A DNA stretch of 64,000 nt from a bacterium (lineage in GTDB: Bacteria; SAR324; NAC60-12). The DNA is taken from positions 96,001 to 160,000 of the forward strand of contig OZ242383.1 in NCBI GenBank assembly GCA_965209155.1, given 5' to 3'. Made by a program: the position numbers and the translations under genes. Below the pieces are notes generated by a model, which had not been told where the DNA came from, made no database searches, and worked only from the letters and a program-made list of their open reading frames with translations. Each line of letters opens with the position of its first letter. Within the stretch, counting starts at the first letter, position 1. Positions 7,960 to 64,000 of the stretch are shown piece by piece.

Positions 7960-8520
7960 AGTCATCACCACCGGCAGAGCCGGTGGCTTGAAGAGGCCCC
8001 CAGTATGGGGGCAAAACGTGTTCGTCATCGTAAGACGTGCTCGTGCTCGTGAACGAAAAAGGCTGCCATGTTAAATCATGAAAAACTCGATGTATACCAA
8101 TGTTCCATCGAATTTTTAGCGTTATCTGTCCAAGTCATCGAAACATTGCCAAAAGGATACTCAGCCTTAGTTGACCAACTGAAAAGGACCTCATGGTCGA
8201 TTCCTCTCATATCGCAGAAGGCTGTGGAAAAAATTCCCTTCCTGACAAGCAACGATTCTATGCGTTTGCCCGAGGTTCCGCAATGGAATGCGCTGCTATT
8301 CTCGATGTTTTAAACGTGTTGAAGATCATCCAGCCTCCTTTATTTGACGAAGGGAAACAGTTACTTCATCGCATTGTTTCTATGTTAACCAAAATGTGCC
8401 ATCGAATTCACTGACCGTTCACGAGCACGAGCACGGCTAACGGACACGGATACGTTTCTCATGTCTGACCGGCAAAGCCTATTAGGTTCGCACCAGCAGA
8501 GCTGGTGGTTTAATGAGATT
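7960..8520 (+). mobile_element. IVP-carrying IS200/IS605-like non-autonomous element, copy 1 (four-helix-bundle gene frameshifted by a 1-bp deletion near 8208)
   Basis: 561 bp, near-identical to the 562-bp intact copies; ORF split into 8068-8313 and 8193-8414. Confidence 0.9.
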
Positions 8521-9950: not shown

Positions 9951-10365
9951 AGTCATCACCACCGGCAGAGCCGGTGGCTTGAAGAGGCCCCCAGTATGAG
10001 GGCAAAACGTGTTCGTCATCGTATGACGTGCTCGTGCTCGTGAACGAAAAAGGCTGCCATGTTAGATCATGAAAAACTCGATGTATACCCATGTTCCATC
10101 GAATTTTTGCGTTACCTGTCCAAGTCATCGAAACATTGCCAAAAGGATACTCAGCCTTAGTTGACCAACTGAAAAGGGCCTCATGGTCGATTATTTGACG
10201 AAGGGAAACAGTTACTTCATCGCATTGTTTCTATGTTAACCAAAATGTGCCGTCGAATTCACTGACCGTTCACGAGCACGGCTCACGGACACGGATACGT
10301 TACTCATGTCTGACCGGCAAAGCCTATTAGGTTCGCACCAGCAGAGCTGGTGGTTTAATGAGATT
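9951..10365 (+). mobile_element. IVP element copy 2, 140-bp internal deletion
   Basis: Both ends intact; junction TGGTCGATT|ATTTGACG. Confidence 0.9.
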
Positions 10366-13289: not shown

Positions 13290-13525
13290 GGCACAAGGGG
13301 AAGGCACAAAGGCACAAAGGCACTGAGGGAAGGCACAAAGGCACAAAGGCACAAAGGCACAAAGGGGGGAAGGCACAAAGGCACAAAGGCACTGAGGGAA
13401 GGCACAAAGGCACAAAGGCACAAAGGCACAAAGGGGGGAAGGCATAAAGGCACAGAGGTAGACTGGATTCCTCGTCAAGCCAGGAAGGACACAAGAGGAA
13501 GGCACAAAGGCACAAAGGCACAAAG
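13290..13525 (+). repeat. GGCACAAA octamer tandem array interspersed with GGGGGAA
   Basis: Direct inspection. Confidence 0.95.
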
Positions 13526-13549
13526 GGGGGATTGGAGTCCTGCTCAAGA

Positions 13550-13710
13550 CAGGAAGGTTGGAAATCCTTTCTATGGAGACGATTCGACGATCCGCTTGGC
13601 CGTGAACCGCTCGAGAAAACAATTGAAGGAATCCGAGGGGCTCCATAATCAATCAGAGGAACTGAAACTTCAAATACTTGCTTGAAGTTCCAAACTTACA
13701 AGCCTGACAC
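13550..13710 (+). pseudogene. RAYT C-terminal (DnaA-C-like HTH) remnant plus right end CAAACTTACAAGCCTGACAC
   Basis: Frame KVGNPFYGDDSTIRLAVNRSRKQLKESEGLHNQSEELKLQILA*; the same tail occurs at about 4915-4982, 8521-8554, 11115-11178 and 14410-14443. Confidence 0.6.
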
Positions 13711-14699
13711 TTTTTTGATCAACGTCATCTCGTAACTCACTTTATAAATCGATTCTGCCAATTCAAGAGCTTGAAGTATTCTGAGATTCTACTGACAAGA
13801 CCGGATCTACGGGGGCTCGATGAATTGCATTGGATCATTTATGCGTTGGGATGCGGCCATCTTCAAAGTCAATGAAATAGTCCTTTTTCACCTGACAAGA
13901 ACTATTGCTTCATGCTAAAGAATCGCTCTCTGTCGATTCTACGGATTCGGGATGCCCTGTTCAGTTCAGCTGAGGCTGTTGAGAGAAAGTCATCACCACC
14001 GGCAGAACCGGTGGCTTGAAGAGGCCCCCAGGATGAGGGCAAAACGTGTTCGTCATCGTAAGACGTGCTCGTGCTCGTGAACGAAAAAGACTGCCATGTT
14101 AGATCATGAAAAACTCGATGTATACCAATGTTCCATCGAATTTTTAGCGTTACCTGTCCAAGTCGTCGAAACATTGCCAAAAGGATACTCAGCCTTAGTT
14201 GACCAACAGAAAAGGGCCTCATGGTCGATTATTTGACGAAGGGAAACAGTTACTTCATCGCATTGTTTCTATGTTAACCAAAATGTGCCGTCGAATTCAC
14301 TGACCGTTCACGAGCACGAGCACGGCTAACGGACACGGATACGTTTCTCATGTCTGACCGGCAAAGCCTATTAGGTTCGCACCAGCAGAGCTGGTGGTTT
14401 AATGAGATCAATCAGAGGAACTGAAACGTCAAATTCCTGCTTGAAGTTCCAAACATCCAAGCCTGACACGTTTTTGATAGACGTCCTCTCGTAACTCTCT
14501 TTAAAAAATCGATTCTGCCAATTCAAGAGCTTTAAGTATTCTGAGATTCTACTGACAAGACCGGATCTACGGGGGCTCGATGAATTGCATTGGATCATTT
14601 ATGCGTTGGGATGCGGCCATCTTCAAAGTCAATGAAATTATCCTTTTTCACCTGACAAGAACTATTGCTTCATGCTAAAAATCGCTCTCTGTGGATTCT
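13651..14699 (+). repeat. Direct duplication of about 290 bp (13651-13940 and 14410-14699) flanking IVP element copy 3
   Basis: Near-identical AATCAGAGGAACTGAAAC...GCTCTCTGT.GATTCT segments. Confidence 0.85.
13988..14409 (+). mobile_element. IVP element copy 3, same 140-bp deletion as copy 2
   Basis: 422 bp; identical deletion junction. Confidence 0.9.
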
Positions 14700-15022
14700 C
14701 TCGCTACCTGTCCGGGTGGAACGATATTCCCATGGTCTGCTGAAGGCGATGATTCCAAATGATCAGTCGGAAGAATGATGAAGAGAGGTCGTAAATAATG
14801 AGCCATGTAAAAAAAAACTTGACATTGTCAGAATTTTATAGTATTAATGCGTCAATAATTAAATGGTACATGCAAAAAAGGGCACCCATAATCAACGGCG
14901 CGTTTTTATGCACCAGTCGTGCGTGATACTCTGAAGGTGTGGAGTGAGACGCAAAATTGGGGATAGTAGGAAGTTTTGTAAATTCCCTGTCAGTATTTTG
15001 ATTTTTTTTAAGGATGAAAAAA

Positions 15023-15415
15023 ATGGCAAGAAATACGAAATTGAACCTGAAAATACAAAGAAAAATTTGCGATGCTCTGAAACGAGGGCACTACATGAGA
15101 ACTGCGGCTCCGCTAGCCGGCGTATCCGCACGAAGCGCGCAAAGCTGGCTGGCGCGAGGGCAGGCGGAAGAAAAACGTAGGGCCAGTGGGGATGGTGCGG
15201 ACCCAAAGGAAGCAATTTACCTGGATTTTATGCTCGCGACTGAAGAAGCGACGTCGCACGCGGTGGATATCGCCTTACAGACATTGACATCTGAGATTGC
15301 AAAAAACTCCAAGGCGGCGCAATGGTACTTGTCCCACCGTTTCTCCGGAAGCTGGGTGGGGATCGAAGAGTTGGAAGAGCGGATCGTGAAACTGGAAGCA
15401 GCTTCGGAAGAGTAA
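15023..15415 (+). CDS. Phage-type HTH protein resembling terminase small subunits
   Basis: TKL...KICDALKRGHY..TAA.LAGVS.....SWLARG and KAAQWYLSHRF...W pattern common in phage TerS-like proteins. Confidence 0.55.
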   Translation: MARNTKLNLKIQRKICDALKRGHYMRTAAPLAGVSARSAQSWLARGQAEEKRRASGDGADPKEAIYLDFMLATEEATSHAVDIALQTLTSEIAKNSKAAQWYLSHRFSGSWVGIEELEERIVKLEAASEE

Positions 15416-15419
15416 TAGG

Positions 15420-15920
15420 ATGAGATTGACAAAGGCTAAAATGCGTGAATTGTTTAAGCGCGTGGCAAAACTGGAAAATAAGAAAAAGTCAAAGCCAGCA
15501 CTGGAAGAAATACTCTGTACTGCTAAAAGGTGTGATCATGCCGGGGTCGAGTGCAAATGTACCTGCGAGAATCATATTGCGGAGAGTTTAGAAGAGTTTG
15601 TGGCAAGACCGGTAAATTGCATTTGCCGGCAGTTTCACAAACCCCCCATAATACCTTGCGGATGCGTGAGTATGGAAGAGTTGAACAGTATTGAAGGTTA
15701 TTCTATTTCAATTGATCTTGATTGGTCTTTAGTAGATAACTATTCGAAATTACGGCAAATAGTGCCGGGTATGTTCCGTTTTGATTGCAACCAAAATATG
15801 GATTCATTTAAGATATGTAGAAGGGATAATGAGATAATAAAAAAGGTTGAAGGAAGAGTAGAAATACTAGCTGAGATTCCCTATAAGAAACTCCTGGCAC
15901 GCTACGGTGTGAGTCCGTAG
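15420..15920 (+). CDS. Hypothetical Cys-rich protein
   Basis: 166 aa, 4 nt after the upstream stop, CxCxC / CxC clusters. Confidence 0.5.
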   Translation: MRLTKAKMRELFKRVAKLENKKKSKPALEEILCTAKRCDHAGVECKCTCENHIAESLEEFVARPVNCICRQFHKPPIIPCGCVSMEELNSIEGYSISIDLDWSLVDNYSKLRQIVPGMFRFDCNQNMDSFKICRRDNEIIKKVEGRVEILAEIPYKKLLARYGVSP

Positions 15921-15929
15921 ATGCCCTCT

Positions 15930-17767
15930 ATGTCATTCTCGCGAAACTTGTCCCCGCGAAACTTGTCCCTGCGAAAGCAGGGAGCAGGGAGCAGGAATCC
16001 TGAATGTCTTGAGCGCCCCTGGATTCCGGGTCTGGGCCCGGAATGACACAAGGGGGGGAAGGGGGGAAGGCACAAAGGCACAAAGGCACAAAGGCACAAA
16101 GGGGGGAAGGACTCAAAGGCAGAATGGATTCCGGGTCTGGGACCGGAATGACACAAGGGGAAGGCACAAAGGCACAAAGGCACAAAGGGGGGAAGGCACA
16201 AAGGCACAAAGGCACAAAGGGGGGAAGGACTCAAAGGCAGGCTGGATTCCTGGATTGGGGTTTTTCGCCGGGAATGACATGCTCCTGGATTGGGGTTTTT
16301 CGCCGGGAATGACGCGTATTTGGCCGTTTTTTGCACGGAATGACACGCTTAAGGAATTCAGAAGAGGAGATCGGATTTTCAGGTCGAGTGAAGAAACTGA
16401 AGAAATACCAGGCAATATTCCGCGCAAGCAGGAATCCTGGATGTCTTGAGCGCCCCTGGATTCCGGGTCTGGGCCCGGAATGACACGTTCCTGTATTGGT
16501 GGTCTTAGCCCGGAATGACATGCTTTTGGATTGGGGTTTTTCGTCGGAAATGACACGTTTTTGGCCGTTTTTTGCACGAAATGACACGTTTTTGGCCGTT
16601 TTTTGCACGGAATGGCAGCTTTTAGCTATTCAGAAGAGGAGATCGGATTTTCAGGTCGAGTGAAGAAACTGAAGAAATACCAGGCAATATTCCGCGCAAG
16701 CAGGAATCCTGAATGTCTTGAGCGCCCCTGGATTCCGGGTCTGGGCCCGGAATGACACATTCCTGGATTCGGGTTTTTAGCCGTGAATGACATGCTCCTG
16801 GATGGCTGTTTTTTGCCGGAAATGACACGTTTTTGGCCGTTTTTGGCCGGAATTGACACACTTTTGGCCGTTTTTTGCCCGGAATGACAAAAGGGGAAGG
16901 CACAAAGGGGGGAAGGACTCAAAGGCAGGCTGGATTCCGGGTCTGGGTCAAGAATGACACAAGGGGAAGGCACAAAGGCACAAGGGGAAGGCACAAAGGC
17001 ACAAAGGCACAAAGGCACAAAGGGGGGAAGGACTCAAAGGCAGGCTGGATTCCTGGATTGGGGTTTTTCGCCGGGAATGACACAAGGGGAAGGCACAGAG
17101 GCAGAATGGAGTCCTCGTCAAGCCAGGAAGGACACAAGGGGAAGGCACAAAGGGGGGAAGGCACAAAGGCACAAAGGCACAAAGGGGGGAAGGACTCAAA
17201 GGCAGGCTGGATTCCTGGATTGGGGTTTTTCGCCGGAAATGACACGTTTTTGGCCGTTTTTTGCCTGTAATGACACGCACTTGGCTGTTTTTTTGCCGGA
17301 ATGACACAAGGGGAAGGCACAAAGGCACAAAGGCACAAAGGCACAGAGGCAGACTGTATTCCTGGTCTGGGCCAAGAATGACACAAGGGGAAGGCACAAA
17401 GGCACAAAGGCACAAAGGCACAAAGGGGGGAAGGACTCAAAGGCAGGCTGGATTCCTGGATTGGGGTTTTTCGCCGGAAATGACACGTTTTTGGCCGTTT
17501 TTTGCCTGTAATGACACGCACTTGGCTGTTTTTTTGCCGGAATGACACAAGGGGAAGGCACAAAGGCACAAAGGCACAAAGGCACAAAGGGGGGAAGGAC
17601 TCAAAGGCAGGCTGGATTCCGGGTCTGGGCCCGGAATGACACGTTTCTGGATTGGGGTTTTTCGCCGGGAATGACATGCTCCTGGATTGGTGTTTTTTGG
17701 CCGGAATGACACGTTTTTGGCCGTTTTTTGCCTGTAATGACACGCACTTGGATTGGGGTTTTTCGCC
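15930..17767. repeat. 1.8-kb mosaic array of GGCACAAA octamers and GGATTCC...GGAATGAC palindromic (REP/dRS3-like) units, with higher-order duplications (period about 241 bp at 17176/17417; about 130 bp at 16357/16628)
   Basis: Direct inspection; the overlapping repetitive ORFs are spurious. Confidence 0.9.
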
Positions 17768-35837: not shown

Positions 35838-36214
35838 AATCTCATTAAACCACCAGCTCTGCTGGTGCGAACCTAATAGGCTTTGCCGGTCAGACATGAG
35901 AAAGGTATCCGTGTCCGTTAGCCGTGCTCGTGCTCGTGAACGGTCAGTGAATTCGACGGCACATTTTGGTTAACATTGAAACAATGCGATGAAGTAACTG
36001 TTTCCCTTCGTCAAATAAAGGAGGATGGATGATCTTCAACACGTTTAAAACATCGAGAATAGCAGCGCATTCCATAAAAATTCGATGGAAGATTGGTATA
36101 CATCGAGTTTTTCATGATCTAACATGGCAGCCTTTTTCGTTCACGAGCACGAGCACGTTTTGCCCTCATACTGGGGGCCTCTTCAAGCCACCGGCTCTTC
36201 CGGTGGTGATGACT
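35838..36214 (-). mobile_element. IVP element copy 4, different deletions (166 bp and 19 bp)
   Basis: 377 bp, both ends intact, preceded by TAATT. Confidence 0.9.
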
Positions 36215-41710: not shown

Positions 41711-41884
41711 CTTTTTCTCTCACTCCCCATGATAGGTTGATATGAACGATTGATCCGACATTGGTTTTCATAGTAGCACTAATTTTCCGTTTATTTTTTC
41801 CCTGAATTTTTATATTTTCATACCATCAACCTCATCCTCTGGGGTTGCGTTGGATATGGTGGAAATTTTTTGCGTGACTCATTG

Positions 41885-42446
41885 AATTATCACCACCGGC
41901 AGAGCCGGTGGCTTGAAGAGGCCCCCAGTATGAGGGCAAAACGTGTTCGTCATCGTAAGACGTGCTCGTGCTCGTGAACGAAAAAGGCTGCCATGTTAGA
42001 TCATGAAAAACTCGATGTATACCAATGTTCCATCGAATTTTTAGCGTTATCTGTCCAAGTCATCGAAACATTGCCAAAAGGATACTCAGCCTTAGTTGAC
42101 CAACTGAAAAGGGCCTCATGGTCGATTCCTCTCAATATCGCAGAAGGCTGTGGAAAAAATTCCTTTGCTGACAAGCAACGATTCTATGCATTTGCCCGAG
42201 GTTCCGCAATGGAATGCGCTGCTATTCTCGATGTTTTAAACGTGTTGAAGATCATCCAGCCTCCTTTATTTGACGAAGGGAAACAGTTACTTCATCGCAT
42301 TGTTTCTATGTTAACCAAAATGTGCCGTCGAATTCACTGACCGTTCACGAGCACGAGCACGGCTCACGGACACGGATACGTTTCTCATGTCTGACCGGCA
42401 AAGCCTATTAGGTTCGCACCAGCAGAGCTGGTGGTTTAATGAGATT
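41885..42446 (+). mobile_element. IVP element copy 5 (full length)
   Basis: 562 bp; terminal AGTC changed to AATT. Confidence 0.9.
41993..42340 (+). CDS. Four helix bundle protein (23S rRNA-IVP / TIGR02436-like)
   Basis: EKLDVYQ, DQLKRAS.SIPLNIAEG, ARGSAMEC. Confidence 0.9.
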   Translation: MLDHEKLDVYQCSIEFLALSVQVIETLPKGYSALVDQLKRASWSIPLNIAEGCGKNSFADKQRFYAFARGSAMECAAILDVLNVLKIIQPPLFDEGKQLLHRIVSMLTKMCRRIH

Positions 42447-42622
42447 AATTATCATACTTTTTCCAAAAGGTTGAGAGCAATTTTTCAGGAGATAATCAGG
42501 CCGGGCAGTGGAGTATCGTAAATCAACCAGCCTTCCCATGGGAACCTTGCTCACAATAAGGCGACTTACATGAAGAGGAAGCGTTCTCTACGTTTTCAAA
42601 AAAATTTTTTCTTCACCAATTC

Positions 42623-46750: not shown

Positions 46751-47312
46751 AGTCATCACCACCGGCAGAGCCGGTGGCTTGAAGAGGCCCCCAGGATGAG
46801 GGCAAAACGTGTTCGTCATCGTAAGACGTGCTCGTGCTCGTGAACGAAAAAGGCTGCCATGTTAGATCATGAAAAACTCGATGTATACCAATGTTCCATC
46901 GAATTTTTAGCGTTATCTGTCCAAGTCATCGAAACATTGCCAAAAGGATACTCAGCCTTAGTTGACCAACAGAAAAGGGCCTCATGGTCGATTCCTCTCA
47001 ATATCGCAGAAGGCTGTGGAAAAAATTCCTTTGCTGACAAGCAACGATTCTATGCATTTGCCCGAGGTTCCGCAATGGAATGCGCTGCTATTCTCGATGT
47101 TTTAAACGTGTTGAAGATCATCCAGCCTCCTTTATTTGACGAAGGGAAACAGTTACTTCATCGCATTGTTTCTATGTTAACCAAAATGTGCCGTCGAATT
47201 CACTGACCGTTCACGAGCACGAGCACGGCTCACGGACACGGATACGTTTCTCATGTCTGACCGGCAAAGCCTATTAGGTTCGCACCAGCAGAGCTGGTGG
47301 TTTAATGAGATT
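46751..47312 (+). mobile_element. IVP element copy 6 (first of a tandem pair)
   Basis: 562 bp. Confidence 0.92.
46859..47206 (+). CDS. Four helix bundle protein
   Basis: As 41993; L38Q. Confidence 0.88.
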   Translation: MLDHEKLDVYQCSIEFLALSVQVIETLPKGYSALVDQQKRASWSIPLNIAEGCGKNSFADKQRFYAFARGSAMECAAILDVLNVLKIIQPPLFDEGKQLLHRIVSMLTKMCRRIH

Positions 47313-47874
47313 AGTCATCACCACCGGCAGAGCCGGTGGCTTGAAGAGGCCCCCAGTATGAGGGCAAAACGTGTTCGTCATCGTATGACGTGCTCGTGCT
47401 CGTGAACGAAAAAAGCTGCCATGTTAGATCATGAAAAACTCGATGTATACCAATGTTCCATCGAATTTTTAGCGTTATCTGTCCAAGTCATCGAAACATT
47501 GCCAAAAGGATACTCAGCCTTAGTTGACCAACTGAAAAGGGCCTCATGGTCGATTCCTCTCAATATCGCAGAAGGCTGTGGAAAAAATTCCTTTCCTGAC
47601 AAGCAACGATTCTATGCATTTGCCCGAGGTTCCGCAATGGAATGCGCTGCTATTCTCGATGTTTTAAACGTGTTGAAGATCATCCAGCCTCCTTTATTTG
47701 ACGAAGGGAAACAGTTACTTCATCGCATTGTTTCTATGTTAACCAAAATGTGCCGTCGAATTCACTGACCGTTCACGAGCACGAGCACGGCTCACGGACA
47801 CGGATACCTTTCTCATGTCTGACCGGCAAAGCCTATTAGGTTCGCACCAGCAGAGCTGGTGGTTTAATGAGATT
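47313..47874 (+). mobile_element. IVP element copy 7 (abuts copy 6 with no spacer)
   Basis: 562 bp; junction GAGATT|AGTCAT. Confidence 0.92.
47421..47768 (+). CDS. Four helix bundle protein
   Basis: As 41993. Confidence 0.88.
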   Translation: MLDHEKLDVYQCSIEFLALSVQVIETLPKGYSALVDQLKRASWSIPLNIAEGCGKNSFPDKQRFYAFARGSAMECAAILDVLNVLKIIQPPLFDEGKQLLHRIVSMLTKMCRRIH

Positions 47875-52262: not shown

Positions 52263-52824
52263 AATCTCATTAAACCACCAGCTCTGCTGGTGCGAACCTA
52301 ATAGGCTTTGCCGGTCAGACATGAGAAACGTATCCGTGTCCGTTAGCCGTGCTCGTGCTCGTGAACGGTCAGTGAATTCGACGGCACATTTTGGTTAACA
52401 TAGAAACAATGCGATGAAGTAACTGTTTCCCTTCGTCAAATAAAGGAGGCTGGATGATCTTCAACACGTTTAAAACATCGAGAATAGCAACGCATTCCAT
52501 TGCGGAACCTCGGGCCAATGCATAGAATCGTTGCTTGTCAGGAAAGGAATTTTGTCCACAGCCTTCTGCGATATTGAGAGGAATCGACCATGAGGCCCTT
52601 TTCAGTTGGTCAACTAAGGCTGAGTATTCTTTTGGCAATGTTTCGATGACTTGGACAGGTAACGCTAAAAATTCGATGGAACATTGGTATACATCGAGTT
52701 TTTCATGATCTAACATGGCAGCCTTTTTCGTTCACGAGCACGAGCACGTCTTACGATGACGAACACGTTTTGCCCCCATCCTGGGGGCCTCTTCAAGCCA
52801 CCGGCTCTGCCGGTGGTGATGACT
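52263..52824 (-). mobile_element. IVP element copy 8
   Basis: 562 bp after TAATT. Confidence 0.92.
52369..52716 (-). CDS. Four helix bundle protein
   Basis: As 41993 with several substitutions. Confidence 0.85.
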   Translation of the reverse strand: MLDHEKLDVYQCSIEFLALPVQVIETLPKEYSALVDQLKRASWSIPLNIAEGCGQNSFPDKQRFYALARGSAMECVAILDVLNVLKIIQPPLFDEGKQLLHRIVSMLTKMCRRIH

Positions 52825-60648: not shown

Positions 60649-61210
60649 AATCTCATTAAACCACCAGCTCTGCTGGTGCGAACCTAATAGGCTTTGCCGG
60701 TCAGACATGAGAAACGTAACCGTGTCCGTTAGCCGTGCTCGTGCTCGTGAACGGTCAGTGAATTCGACAGCACATTTTGGTTAACATAGAAACAATGCGA
60801 TGAGGTAATTGTTTCCCTTCGTCAAATAAAGGAGGCTGGATGATCTTCAACACGTTTAAAACATCGAGAATAGCAGCGCATTCCATTGCGGAACCTCGGG
60901 CAAATGCATAGAATCGTTGCTTGTCAGGAAAGGAATTTTTTCCACAGCCTTCTGCGATATTGAGAGGAATCGACCATGAGGCCCTTTTCAGTTGGTCAAC
61001 TAAGGCTGAGTATCCTTTTGGCAATGTTTCGATGACTTGGACAGATAACGCTAAAAATTCGATGGAACATTGGTATACATCGAGTTTTTCATGATCTAAC
61101 ATGGCAGCCTTTTTCGTTCACGAGCACGAGCACGTCTTACGATGACGAACACGTTTTGCCCTCATACTGGGGGCCTCTTCAAGCCACCGGCTCTGCCGGT
61201 GGTGATGACT
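60649..61210 (-). mobile_element. IVP element copy 9
   Basis: 562 bp after TAATT. Confidence 0.92.
60755..61102 (-). CDS. Four helix bundle protein
   Basis: As 41993. Confidence 0.85.
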   Translation of the reverse strand: MLDHEKLDVYQCSIEFLALSVQVIETLPKGYSALVDQLKRASWSIPLNIAEGCGKNSFPDKQRFYAFARGSAMECAAILDVLNVLKIIQPPLFDEGKQLPHRIVSMLTKMCCRIH

Positions 61211-63655: not shown

Positions 63656-64000
63656 AATCTCATTAAACCACCAGCTCTGCTGGTGCGAACCTAATAGGCT
63701 TTGCCGGTCAGACATGAGAAACGTATCCGTGTCCGTTAGCCGTGCTCGTGCTCGTGAACGGTCAGTGAATTCGACGGCACATTTTGGTTAACATAGAAAC
63801 AATGCGATGAAGTAACTGTTTTCCTTCGTCAAATAAAGAAGGCTGGATGATCTTCAACACGTTTAAAACATCGAGAATAGCAGCGCATTCCATTGCGGAA
63901 CCTCGGGCAAATGCATAGAATCGTTGCTTGTCAGGAAAGGAATTTTGTCCACAGCCTTCTGCGATATTGAGAGGAATCGACCATGAGGCCCTTTTCAGTT
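63656..64000 (-). mobile_element. IVP element copy 10 (truncated by the window edge)
   Basis: TAATT|AATCTC end plus the 3' part of the four-helix-bundle gene. Confidence 0.9.

Follow-up and report, generated by a model that had tools for sequence, protein, structure and literature searches.

How does a 562-bp unit that encodes no transposase come to stand ten times within 64 kb of a bacterial chromosome, and what is the one gene inside it doing there? We took up this question in a 64,000-nucleotide stretch from a SAR324 bacterium of the NAC60-12 lineage (GenBank assembly GCA_965209155.1, contig OZ242383.1, positions 96,001 to 160,000), referred to here as the window; in our labels it is G000:C1:96001-160000, G000 being a single-contig genome of 4.26 Mb with 48% G+C. 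The focal copy of the unit (window 41885..42446, 562 bp) contains a single open reading frame (ORF) for a four-helix-bundle protein of the IVP (S23p) type, known for some 30 years from the intervening sequences (IVSs) of rRNA genes. We consider it very probable that the unit belongs, as a non-autonomous member, to a widespread IS200-group lineage of transposons, with an IVS-type cassette as its interior, and that it is moved in trans by a Y1 transposase. Carrying this reading are features that we observed directly, namely the homology of its ends, the use of a target without duplication, ORF-less derivatives that have moved, an orientation that depends on the replichore, and the copy number itself.

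An earlier note on this DNA, made from the letters alone, had reported the unit at ten window positions, in both orientations and in unrelated contexts, and we recovered it at 10/10 of them: six copies are full, three are internally deleted and one is cut by the window end. Across the whole genome, BLASTN returned 129 high-scoring segment pairs, 85 of which are at least 540 bp long at 96-100% identity; merging the pairs left 102 copies and fragments, and alignment with the flanks gave 83 copies with both ends, all mutually different (mean pairwise identity 98.1%). Both strands are occupied, and the flanks differ, amounting to ~100 mostly intergenic or repeat contexts. Among the window copies, one full copy lies at 7960..8520 (top strand minus, ORF plus; 98.4% identity over 563 aligned positions), and the copy truncated by the window boundary, at 63656..64000 (top strand plus, ORF minus), continues to full length in the genome. 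The copies in G000 are strongly clustered (21 in 2.49-2.66 Mb and 24 in 0-0.35 Mb, vs. 6 in 0.44-2.30 Mb), a pattern that suggests either local hopping or regional accessibility. The sister species in the same genus, G001, has four full copies with ~85% identity to the G000 element.

Throughout, the top strand denotes the transposition strand, which is antisense to the IVP ORF. In the focal copy (top strand minus, ORF plus), whose boundaries come from the 83 aligned copies together with the virtual empty sites described below, the left-end (LE) module occupies 42382..42446 (minus strand) and reads on the top strand as AATCTCATTAAAC, the hairpin CACCAGC-TCT-GCTGGTG (42417-42433) and then ~35 nt, for which a DNA fold was computed. 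The right-end (RE) module (41885..41937, minus strand) consists of a second hairpin (41921-41937), the hairpin CCACCGGC-TCT-GCCGGTGG (41893-41911) and an 8-nt tail, and its DNA fold is predicted at -15.2 kcal/mol (z -4.2). In element coordinates, the RE module comprises 53 nt (positions 1-53) and the LE module ~69 nt (about 495-563). On the top strand the left tip precedes the foot of the CACCAGC-TCT-GCTGGTG hairpin by 13 nt, and the right tip ends in ...TGATGACT, 8 nt 3' of the CCACCGGC-TCT-GCCGGTGG hairpin. The end sequences, the two subterminal hairpins and the lack of terminal inverted repeats, which had already been described, read the same way in the focal copy and in the 83 aligned copies. 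The subterminal hairpins repeat each other in direct and not in inverted orientation (CACCRGC-AGA-GCYGGTG on the ORF strand), with the same loop, TCT on the top strand, at both ends, and they are therefore alike on one strand only.

These end modules belong to a lineage found well beyond this genus. We scanned the genome_contigs collection, with one genome per species, for a 23-nt pattern that both ends share, and it matched at least 94 stretches, the matches listed including Methylococcales, Desulfobacterota, Planctomycetota, Hydrogenedentota, Verrucomicrobia, Nitrospirales, Chloroflexota and others; a further two stretches matched in viral_contigs. In the 80 loci that we fetched, the matches fall into the same two end types as in the G000 element, the RE type being AGTCA-N3-4-hairpin-CTTGA-second hairpin and the LE type ...GCCTATTAGGTTCG-hairpin-TTTAA..., with AATTA beyond it in the Desulfobacterota members. 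Adjoining the motif on the strand antisense to the IVP ORF are 17 ORF entries (nine distinct sequences) of 132-144 aa that resemble IS200 transposases, and the one representative tested, P0001, scored 124 bits against PF01797. Hairpin-to-hairpin spacing is 554-614 bp in full relatives and 308-372 bp in gene-less forms like miniature inverted-repeat transposable elements (MITEs; L070, L095 and L098), and partner hairpins show paired stem changes (TACCAGC/GCTGGTA, CACCCGC/GCGGGTG and CACCAGT/ACTGGTG). In local alignments only element positions 1-53 and about 495-563 are homologous: the RE aligns with 42/53 identities to L055 and 48/53 to L070, and the LE with 57/62 to the transposase-bearing L055 and 62/65 to L045, the latter two both from other phyla. 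The 441 bp between the modules are cargo, and the relatives hold tnpA in that interior. Since the same end modules elsewhere flank the gene of a Y1 transposase of 140-144 aa, or nothing, the unit derives, in non-autonomous form, from a widespread IS200 lineage; the proposal that an IVP cassette had replaced tnpA in an IS200/IS605 element is borne out by the PF01797 Y1 genes that the same ends enclose in other phyla.

We next consider the insertion site. On the ORF strand the element starts with AGTCA in 77/83 copies (TGACT on the top strand) or AATTA in 3/83 and ends with GAGATT, which is followed by AATTA in 76/83; no copy (0/83) has a 5-bp flanking direct repeat, in line with the absence of target duplication claimed earlier. 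At the focal copy this pentamer occupies 42447..42451 (minus strand; AATTA on the plus strand, TAATT on the top strand) and lies outside the element. Virtual empty sites, obtained by removing exactly 562 bp, aligned without a gap to 4, 39, 38, 43 and 33 uninterrupted paralogous repeats with AATTA present, and for one G001 insertion the element-free orthologous site in G000 aligns across the junction, again without a gap. Furthermore, 10/83 full copies landed within an AT-rich host repeat at several different AATTA sites, among them the window copies at 52263..52824 (top strand plus, ORF minus) and 60649..61210 (top strand plus, ORF minus), which sit at different AATTA pentamers of the same repeat family. 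Because several AATTA sites of one host repeat were hit and because both paralogous and orthologous empty sites align gap-free, AATTA is the target and not part of the element; the boundaries and the empty sites together place TAATT directly 5' of the element when the strand antisense to the ORF is read. The host repeat itself (...CCGGGACCAGCATGACACATCATAATTATTAAATTATTGATTTTATAAATTAAATTTCAACTCCTGATTCGCAT...) is abundant, with ~40 uninterrupted copies genome-wide and an AT-rich centre containing several AATTA. We also observed that in three copies, the focal one (41885-41889) and those at G000:C1:23647 and 167219, the RE is tipped with AATTA, two transitions away from AGTCA, and the right tip then equals the target sequence.

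This layout can be set beside that of IS608, for which passages of one paper (PMC3201880) give a target outside the element, tip-to-hairpin distances of 19 nt and 10 nt, chemistry on the top strand and no duplication. Judged from the boundaries, the predicted left cleavage is in the flank 5' of the LE hairpin and the predicted right cleavage is 8 nt 3' of the RE hairpin, within the element. Two nucleotides 5' of the LE foot, ATTAA is the position-by-position complement of TAATT (read by eye), a putative analogue of the AAAG/TTAC pairing.

Evidence that the ends are mobilised comes from three internal-deletion derivatives (delA, delB and delC), each of which occurs at two loci with an identical junction and different flanks. 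Both delA loci are in the window (9951..10365 and 13988..14409, top strand minus in each), whereas delB at 35838..36214 (top strand plus) shares its junction with the copy at G000:C1:2550191. The delC form has lost the ORF and most of both arms of the cassette, yet is present at two loci. These derivatives moved, and mobilisation therefore probably acts on the ends in trans. Around the second delA copy, window 13300-17750 is a dense block of other direct-repeat families (D4, D6, D7 and D9; units of 110-272 nt) that are unrelated to the element.

Copies were also found joined to each other. The direct RE-LE junction GAGATT|AGTCA occurs twice in G000, as a tandem, and one instance is the head-to-tail pair of full copies at 46751..47312 and 47313..47874 (top strand minus in both); a second tandem type, AATTA-A-AGTCA, occurs four times in G000 and was seen also in another run. 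The GAGATT|AGTCA junction is at most an indirect sign of a single-stranded circle in which RE and LE abut. We examined the contigs of three DNA runs and one RNA-library run (X18). In the DNA runs the contigs break at the element ends, and no contig in the four runs joins across an empty focal site. In X18 a contig spans the whole element and none of the flanks, where with ~100 DNA copies transcription and DNA carry-over are inseparable; the same run contains a closed 562-nt unitig covering window 41889-42450, whose junction GAGATT-AATTA-TCACC is absent from G000. Either a circle or a tandem of the rare subtype with AATTA tips would account for this unitig, which proves neither transcription nor excision.

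Orientation followed the replichore. The origin of replication was placed by dnaA (1.795 Mb), since GC skew and the strand bias of long ORFs were both uninformative. Clockwise of dnaA the ORF orientation (plus/minus) was 15/48, vs. 26/13 in the other half (Fisher p 2.6e-5), and the bias persisted with tandems collapsed (15/45 vs. 23/12, p 1.7e-4). When all possible origins were scanned, the best split fell at 1.85 Mb, within 55 kb of dnaA, with 70/95 events in agreement. With the origin placed by dnaA, the direction of this bias assigns the predicted top strand to the lagging-strand template, and such a bias is described for IS608, ISDra2 and other family members in parts of PMC5027513.

The chemistry of movement and the identity of the transposase we infer from the family to which the ends belong. 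By analogy with IS608, a Y1 HUH transposase supplied in trans would bind both subterminal hairpins on the top strand, cut on the 3' side of two pentamers, the flanking TAATT (left end) and TGACT (right tip), and release a single-stranded circle ('peel and paste'); this circle would then be pasted 3' of another TAATT exposed as single-stranded DNA on the lagging-strand template, with no duplication. The IVP protein is dispensable in cis.

The cargo is a complete IVS-type cassette and not merely a gene, the ORF standing between inverted CGTNNN arrays. The IVP ORF (41993..42340, plus strand; 115 aa) was taken for a four-helix-bundle protein in the earlier note, and profile hidden Markov models agree: it scores 84.9 bits against PF05635 (cut-off 33.8) and 79.7 bits against TIGR02436 (cut-off 24), and it matches PDB entry 2gsc_A with an E value of 3e-10. 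The left arm (41942..41980, plus strand) is an array of CGTNNN hexamers (CGTGTT CGTCAT CGTAAGA CGTGCT CGTGCT CGTGAA CG), and its inverted partner, the right arm (42342..42381, plus strand), is an NNNACG array (CGTTCACG AGCACG AGCACG GCTCACG GACACG GATACG). In the predicted RNA the arms pair as a ~38 bp stem with the ORF in its loop (minimum free energy -185.7 kcal/mol, z -6.6). A consensus scan of 41800-42520 gave 0 promoters and 0 terminators, and an Rfam scan at E up to 1 gave 0 matches.

Cassettes of this kind also occur elsewhere. A metagenome scan for relatives of the IVP protein yielded 80 loci, of which we inspected the 37 at 49-71% identity; most have inverted short-repeat arrays around the ORF (judged by eye, with no formal count), and 0/37 have an IS200 hairpin. 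Taking these 37 loci together with the ORFs listed near the end motif in the 80 genome_contigs loci, we found an IVP gene within IS200 ends in G000 and G001 only. Two of the metagenome relatives (L150 and L151; ~53% identity) lie between attC-like sites (GGCCAAC...GTTGGCC) ~60 nt apart and have the look of integron cassettes. G000 itself has three more IVP paralogues outside IS200 ends (G000:C1:2689339-2689656, 1977834-1978139 and 2014284-2014493), each flanked by inverted arrays of 7-8-nt repeats (TTTTCAG/CTGAAAA, GGTTATC/GATAACC and AAAGGCAC/GTGCCTTT), two of them apparently wedged behind permease-like genes. A separate MITE-like repeat of ~230-280 bp (G000:C1:1410608-1410890, and near 938764, 1041586, 2164077, 3208841, 568722, 1268456, 319862 and 1947820) combines the hairpin CCACCTTCT-TAG-AAGGTGG TTTTGA with the second hairpin of the IVP element and one CGTNNN arm; it may be what is left of another IS200 derivative that carried an IVP gene. 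That second hairpin, together with a hexamer arm, recurs in four tandem units ~200 bp apart at G000:C1:2753025-2753700.

We then asked how selection has treated the IVP gene. Between the G000 consensus and the four G001 copies, the ratio of non-synonymous to synonymous divergence (dN/dS) is 0.10-0.12 at a dS of 0.83-0.95, and the non-coding parts are conserved at 97-100/106 positions on the LE side and 89-90/108 on the RE side. Within G000, the ORF is intact in 65/83 full copies and broken in 18/83, and the corresponding ratio for variants against the consensus (pN/pS) is 0.96. Variants shared by several copies comprise 32 non-synonymous changes and 2 stops vs. 7 synonymous changes, and singletons 52 and 7 stops vs. 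20, so that shared variants are no poorer in non-synonymous changes than singletons. The IVP gene is thus under purifying selection between species and in neutral decay within the recent burst, and the protein therefore mattered on the long interspecies branch. As it was kept by purifying selection though dispensable in cis, IVP probably does something for the element or the host.

Several results nonetheless weigh against the reading of a trans-mobilised IS200 derivative, above all those from the search for its driver. The earlier note had proposed looking for an autonomous IS200 tnpA with the same ends: one exists in other phyla, and G000, G001 and 39 further relatives gave none. Mobilisation in trans, as the note proposed it, agrees with the moved ORF-less derivatives, and no matching-clade transposase was found in those same genomes. 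In G000, a search for the element hairpin outside the element's own copies (at most 2 mismatches) found 0 related matches and 1 unrelated match. The ~20 PF01797 matches of this genome resolve into three intact IS200 families (A, B and C), a relic (D) and two TIRYT-like genes; the hairpins of families A, B and C and of relic D differ from that of the element, and the resident transposases are only 28-38% identical to the cognate clade, which is 52-71% identical internally. The best match in G001 is 36% identical over 76 residues with two stops, and the best matches in the 39 further relatives are 44-49% identical, in three of them, none with the hairpin. At the ends, a guide equivalent for TGACT at the RE was not found by eye, so that the IS608 pairing rule is matched at the left end only. 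The replichore bias depends on an origin resting on dnaA; a circle, excision and transposition are predicted and not directly seen; and a dN/dS of 0.11 is unexpected for a passenger gene that acts purely in trans.

Individual candidates for the driver were tried and rejected. In L205-L208, from family-level relatives, the transposases share 44-49% identity with the cognate clade, but the hairpin is missing even when 4 mismatches are allowed. We also considered, as a possible dead cognate, the relic transposase at G000:C1:1156289-1156605, which belongs to another family because its LE hairpin differs (CCCCGCCC-TTT-GGGCGGGG). No element hairpins are associated with the TIRYT-like Y1 genes (L012 2755-3747, 330 aa; L011 2946-3557, 203 aa); the L011 gene (G000:C1:3282445-3283056) is truncated and lies ~650 bp from a degenerate element copy, and its L012 paralogue is intact. 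Plasmids of cultured bacteria carry transposases with 51-60% identity to the cognate query, and the one that we inspected, 60% identical and on a plasmid of Desulfosarcina ovata (NZ_AP021877.1), has hairpins that are related but different (CCACCCGC-TAA-GCGGGTGG).

Who, then, supplies the enzyme? The most likely option, to which we give about half of our belief, is a cognate-clade transposase that is now gone from, or was never on, the assembled chromosome. It is possible, at clearly lower probability, that the element is driven by an IS200 transposase that is resident but non-cognate and cross-recognises the hairpins, and family C, the most recently active autonomous IS200 in G000, would be the best candidate cross-mobiliser. 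Its five 100% identical copies, each after TTT (G000:C1:2715571-2716131, 3805715-3806275, 3737479-3738039, 236509-237069 and 3351913-3352473), attest to recent activity; it shares with the element the LE tip AATCTC, a GC-TCT-GC apex at the RE and an 8-nt tail after the RE hairpin, and it is 561 bp long vs. 562 bp. However, the stems differ (CCCCGTAGC vs. CCACCGGC), as does the distance from LE tip to hairpin (~22 nt in family C vs. 13 nt in the element), and the family C transposase is 29-36% identical to the cognate clade. The element-bearing G001 also gave no family C match, with a query, however, that came from the cognate clade and was not a proper test for family C.

The copies might instead be kept mainly for a host function, as a structure in RNA or DNA like that of repetitive extragenic palindromes (REPs) or as a useful IVP, the unit no longer being, or never having been, much of a transposon. 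Purifying selection on IVP between species, the failure to find a cognate transposase in G000, G001 and 39 relatives and the extreme conservation of the non-coding LE all speak for such a function; we nevertheless regard it as unlikely, given that ORF decay within the genome is neutral (pN/pS 0.96, 18/83 full copies broken), that copy number differs ~25-fold between two species of one genus, that 10/83 copies landed inside another repeat and that the LE conservation is equally well explained by transposase recognition, the same LE being kept across phyla. A hairpin cassette mobile by a mechanism of its own, with the IS200 ends as incidental neighbours, would accommodate the IVP genes with inverted short-repeat arms and no IS200 ends, that is, all 37 inspected metagenome loci and the three other G000 loci. 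This explanation is highly improbable: the boundaries of the repeated unit coincide exactly with the IS200 LE and RE tips and not with the arms, delC has reached two loci without the ORF and most of the arms, the target and the side on which it lies are those of the transposase-bearing relatives, and orientation follows the direction of replication. That the copies are an artefact of assembly or duplication, which had been raised as a caveat at the outset, can be practically dismissed. The 83 full copies all differ, as do their flanks, and word depth in the element is 40-90x that of unique flanks in three DNA runs (524 vs. 6, 140 vs. 3.5, and ~1000 vs. 12-17).

Set against known systems, the unit is closest to the IS200/IS605 family, for which IS608 is the paradigm. 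It shares with that family subterminal hairpins on one strand, the lack of terminal inverted repeats, insertion 3' of a short specific sequence without duplication, asymmetric tip-to-hairpin distances (13/8 here vs. 19/10 in IS608), a replichore orientation bias and end modules homologous to those of transposase-bearing elements of other phyla; it differs in having neither tnpA nor tnpB, in enclosing an unrelated gene on the opposite strand and in its ~100 copies. Non-autonomous derivatives of the family, known as palindrome-associated transposable elements (PATEs) or as MITE-like forms, have reportedly been described by Dyall-Smith et al. in 2011 and He et al. in 2015. They too lack a transposase between their IS200/IS605 ends, have been amplified and presumably depend on mobilisation in trans, and MITE forms of the present lineage exist as well. 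PATEs are not known to code for proteins, whereas the G000 element carries an intact, selected protein gene with hairpin arms of its own.

ORF-bearing 23S rRNA IVSs are also found in Leptospira. With such IVSs the cassette shares the PF05635 protein family and the placement of the ORF in the loop of a long stem (predicted here); unlike them, the G000 copies lie within transposon ends and not in rRNA and are multi-copy. For Coxiella burnetii, parts of PMC4990558 describe a 23S IVS with an S23p ORF as a substrate of RNase III and report the ORF as decaying, whereas that of the G000 element is under purifying selection between species. The REPIN/RAYT and REP/TnpA(REP) systems offer another comparison, with hairpin elements in high copy number that a Y1 HUH enzyme encoded elsewhere presumably moves; as presented in portions of PMC3116915 and PMC8266576, however, those elements are short and non-coding and rely on a domesticated enzyme whose single-copy gene lies between the same hairpins. 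A search of G000 for the element hairpins, allowing at most 2 mismatches, found no RAYT-like gene flanked by them. Finally, PF05635 resembles Avd, a protein of diversity-generating retroelements, a section of PMC10053308 comparing 2GSC with 4DWL. Our protein shares this four-helix-bundle fold family, and a retroelement context for the copies is not expected because they lie in ~100 unrelated contexts.

In full-text literature searches we found no description of an IVP gene inside IS200/IS605 ends, ISfinder being outside the scope of those searches. New here are the transposase-bearing parent lineage in other phyla, the exact breakpoints of the cargo, the moved deletion derivatives, the replichore bias and the pattern of selection. 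We also entertain, as a speculation held with little confidence, the idea that IVP is not passive: a hairpin-armed cassette would parasitise other elements that are mobile or undergo processing, such as helices of rRNA, cassettes of integrons and, in the present case, an IS200 MITE, with its protein acting preferentially in cis. If this is true, IVP would act on its own structured nucleic acid, for example by binding the hexamer-repeat stem or the single-stranded DNA ends, and raise the chance that the element is copied, which would explain both the purifying selection in a transposon without transposase and a burst to ~100 copies of which the transposase-bearing relatives that we examined give no sign.

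Irrespective of that idea, the IVP cassette sits here inside a vehicle whose mechanism is understood at the atomic level, accompanied by a natural series of ORF-less derivatives, a sister species and candidate transposases from other phyla, and the element thereby makes both the effect of IVP on the frequency of single-strand transposition and the binding target of IVP directly testable. It clearly exemplifies an IS200/IS605 derivative in high copy number for which no driver was found in the genome, and as such it bears on how bursts start and stop. It also widens the cargo range of the IS200/IS605 family beyond tnpB/iscB-type genes and introns.

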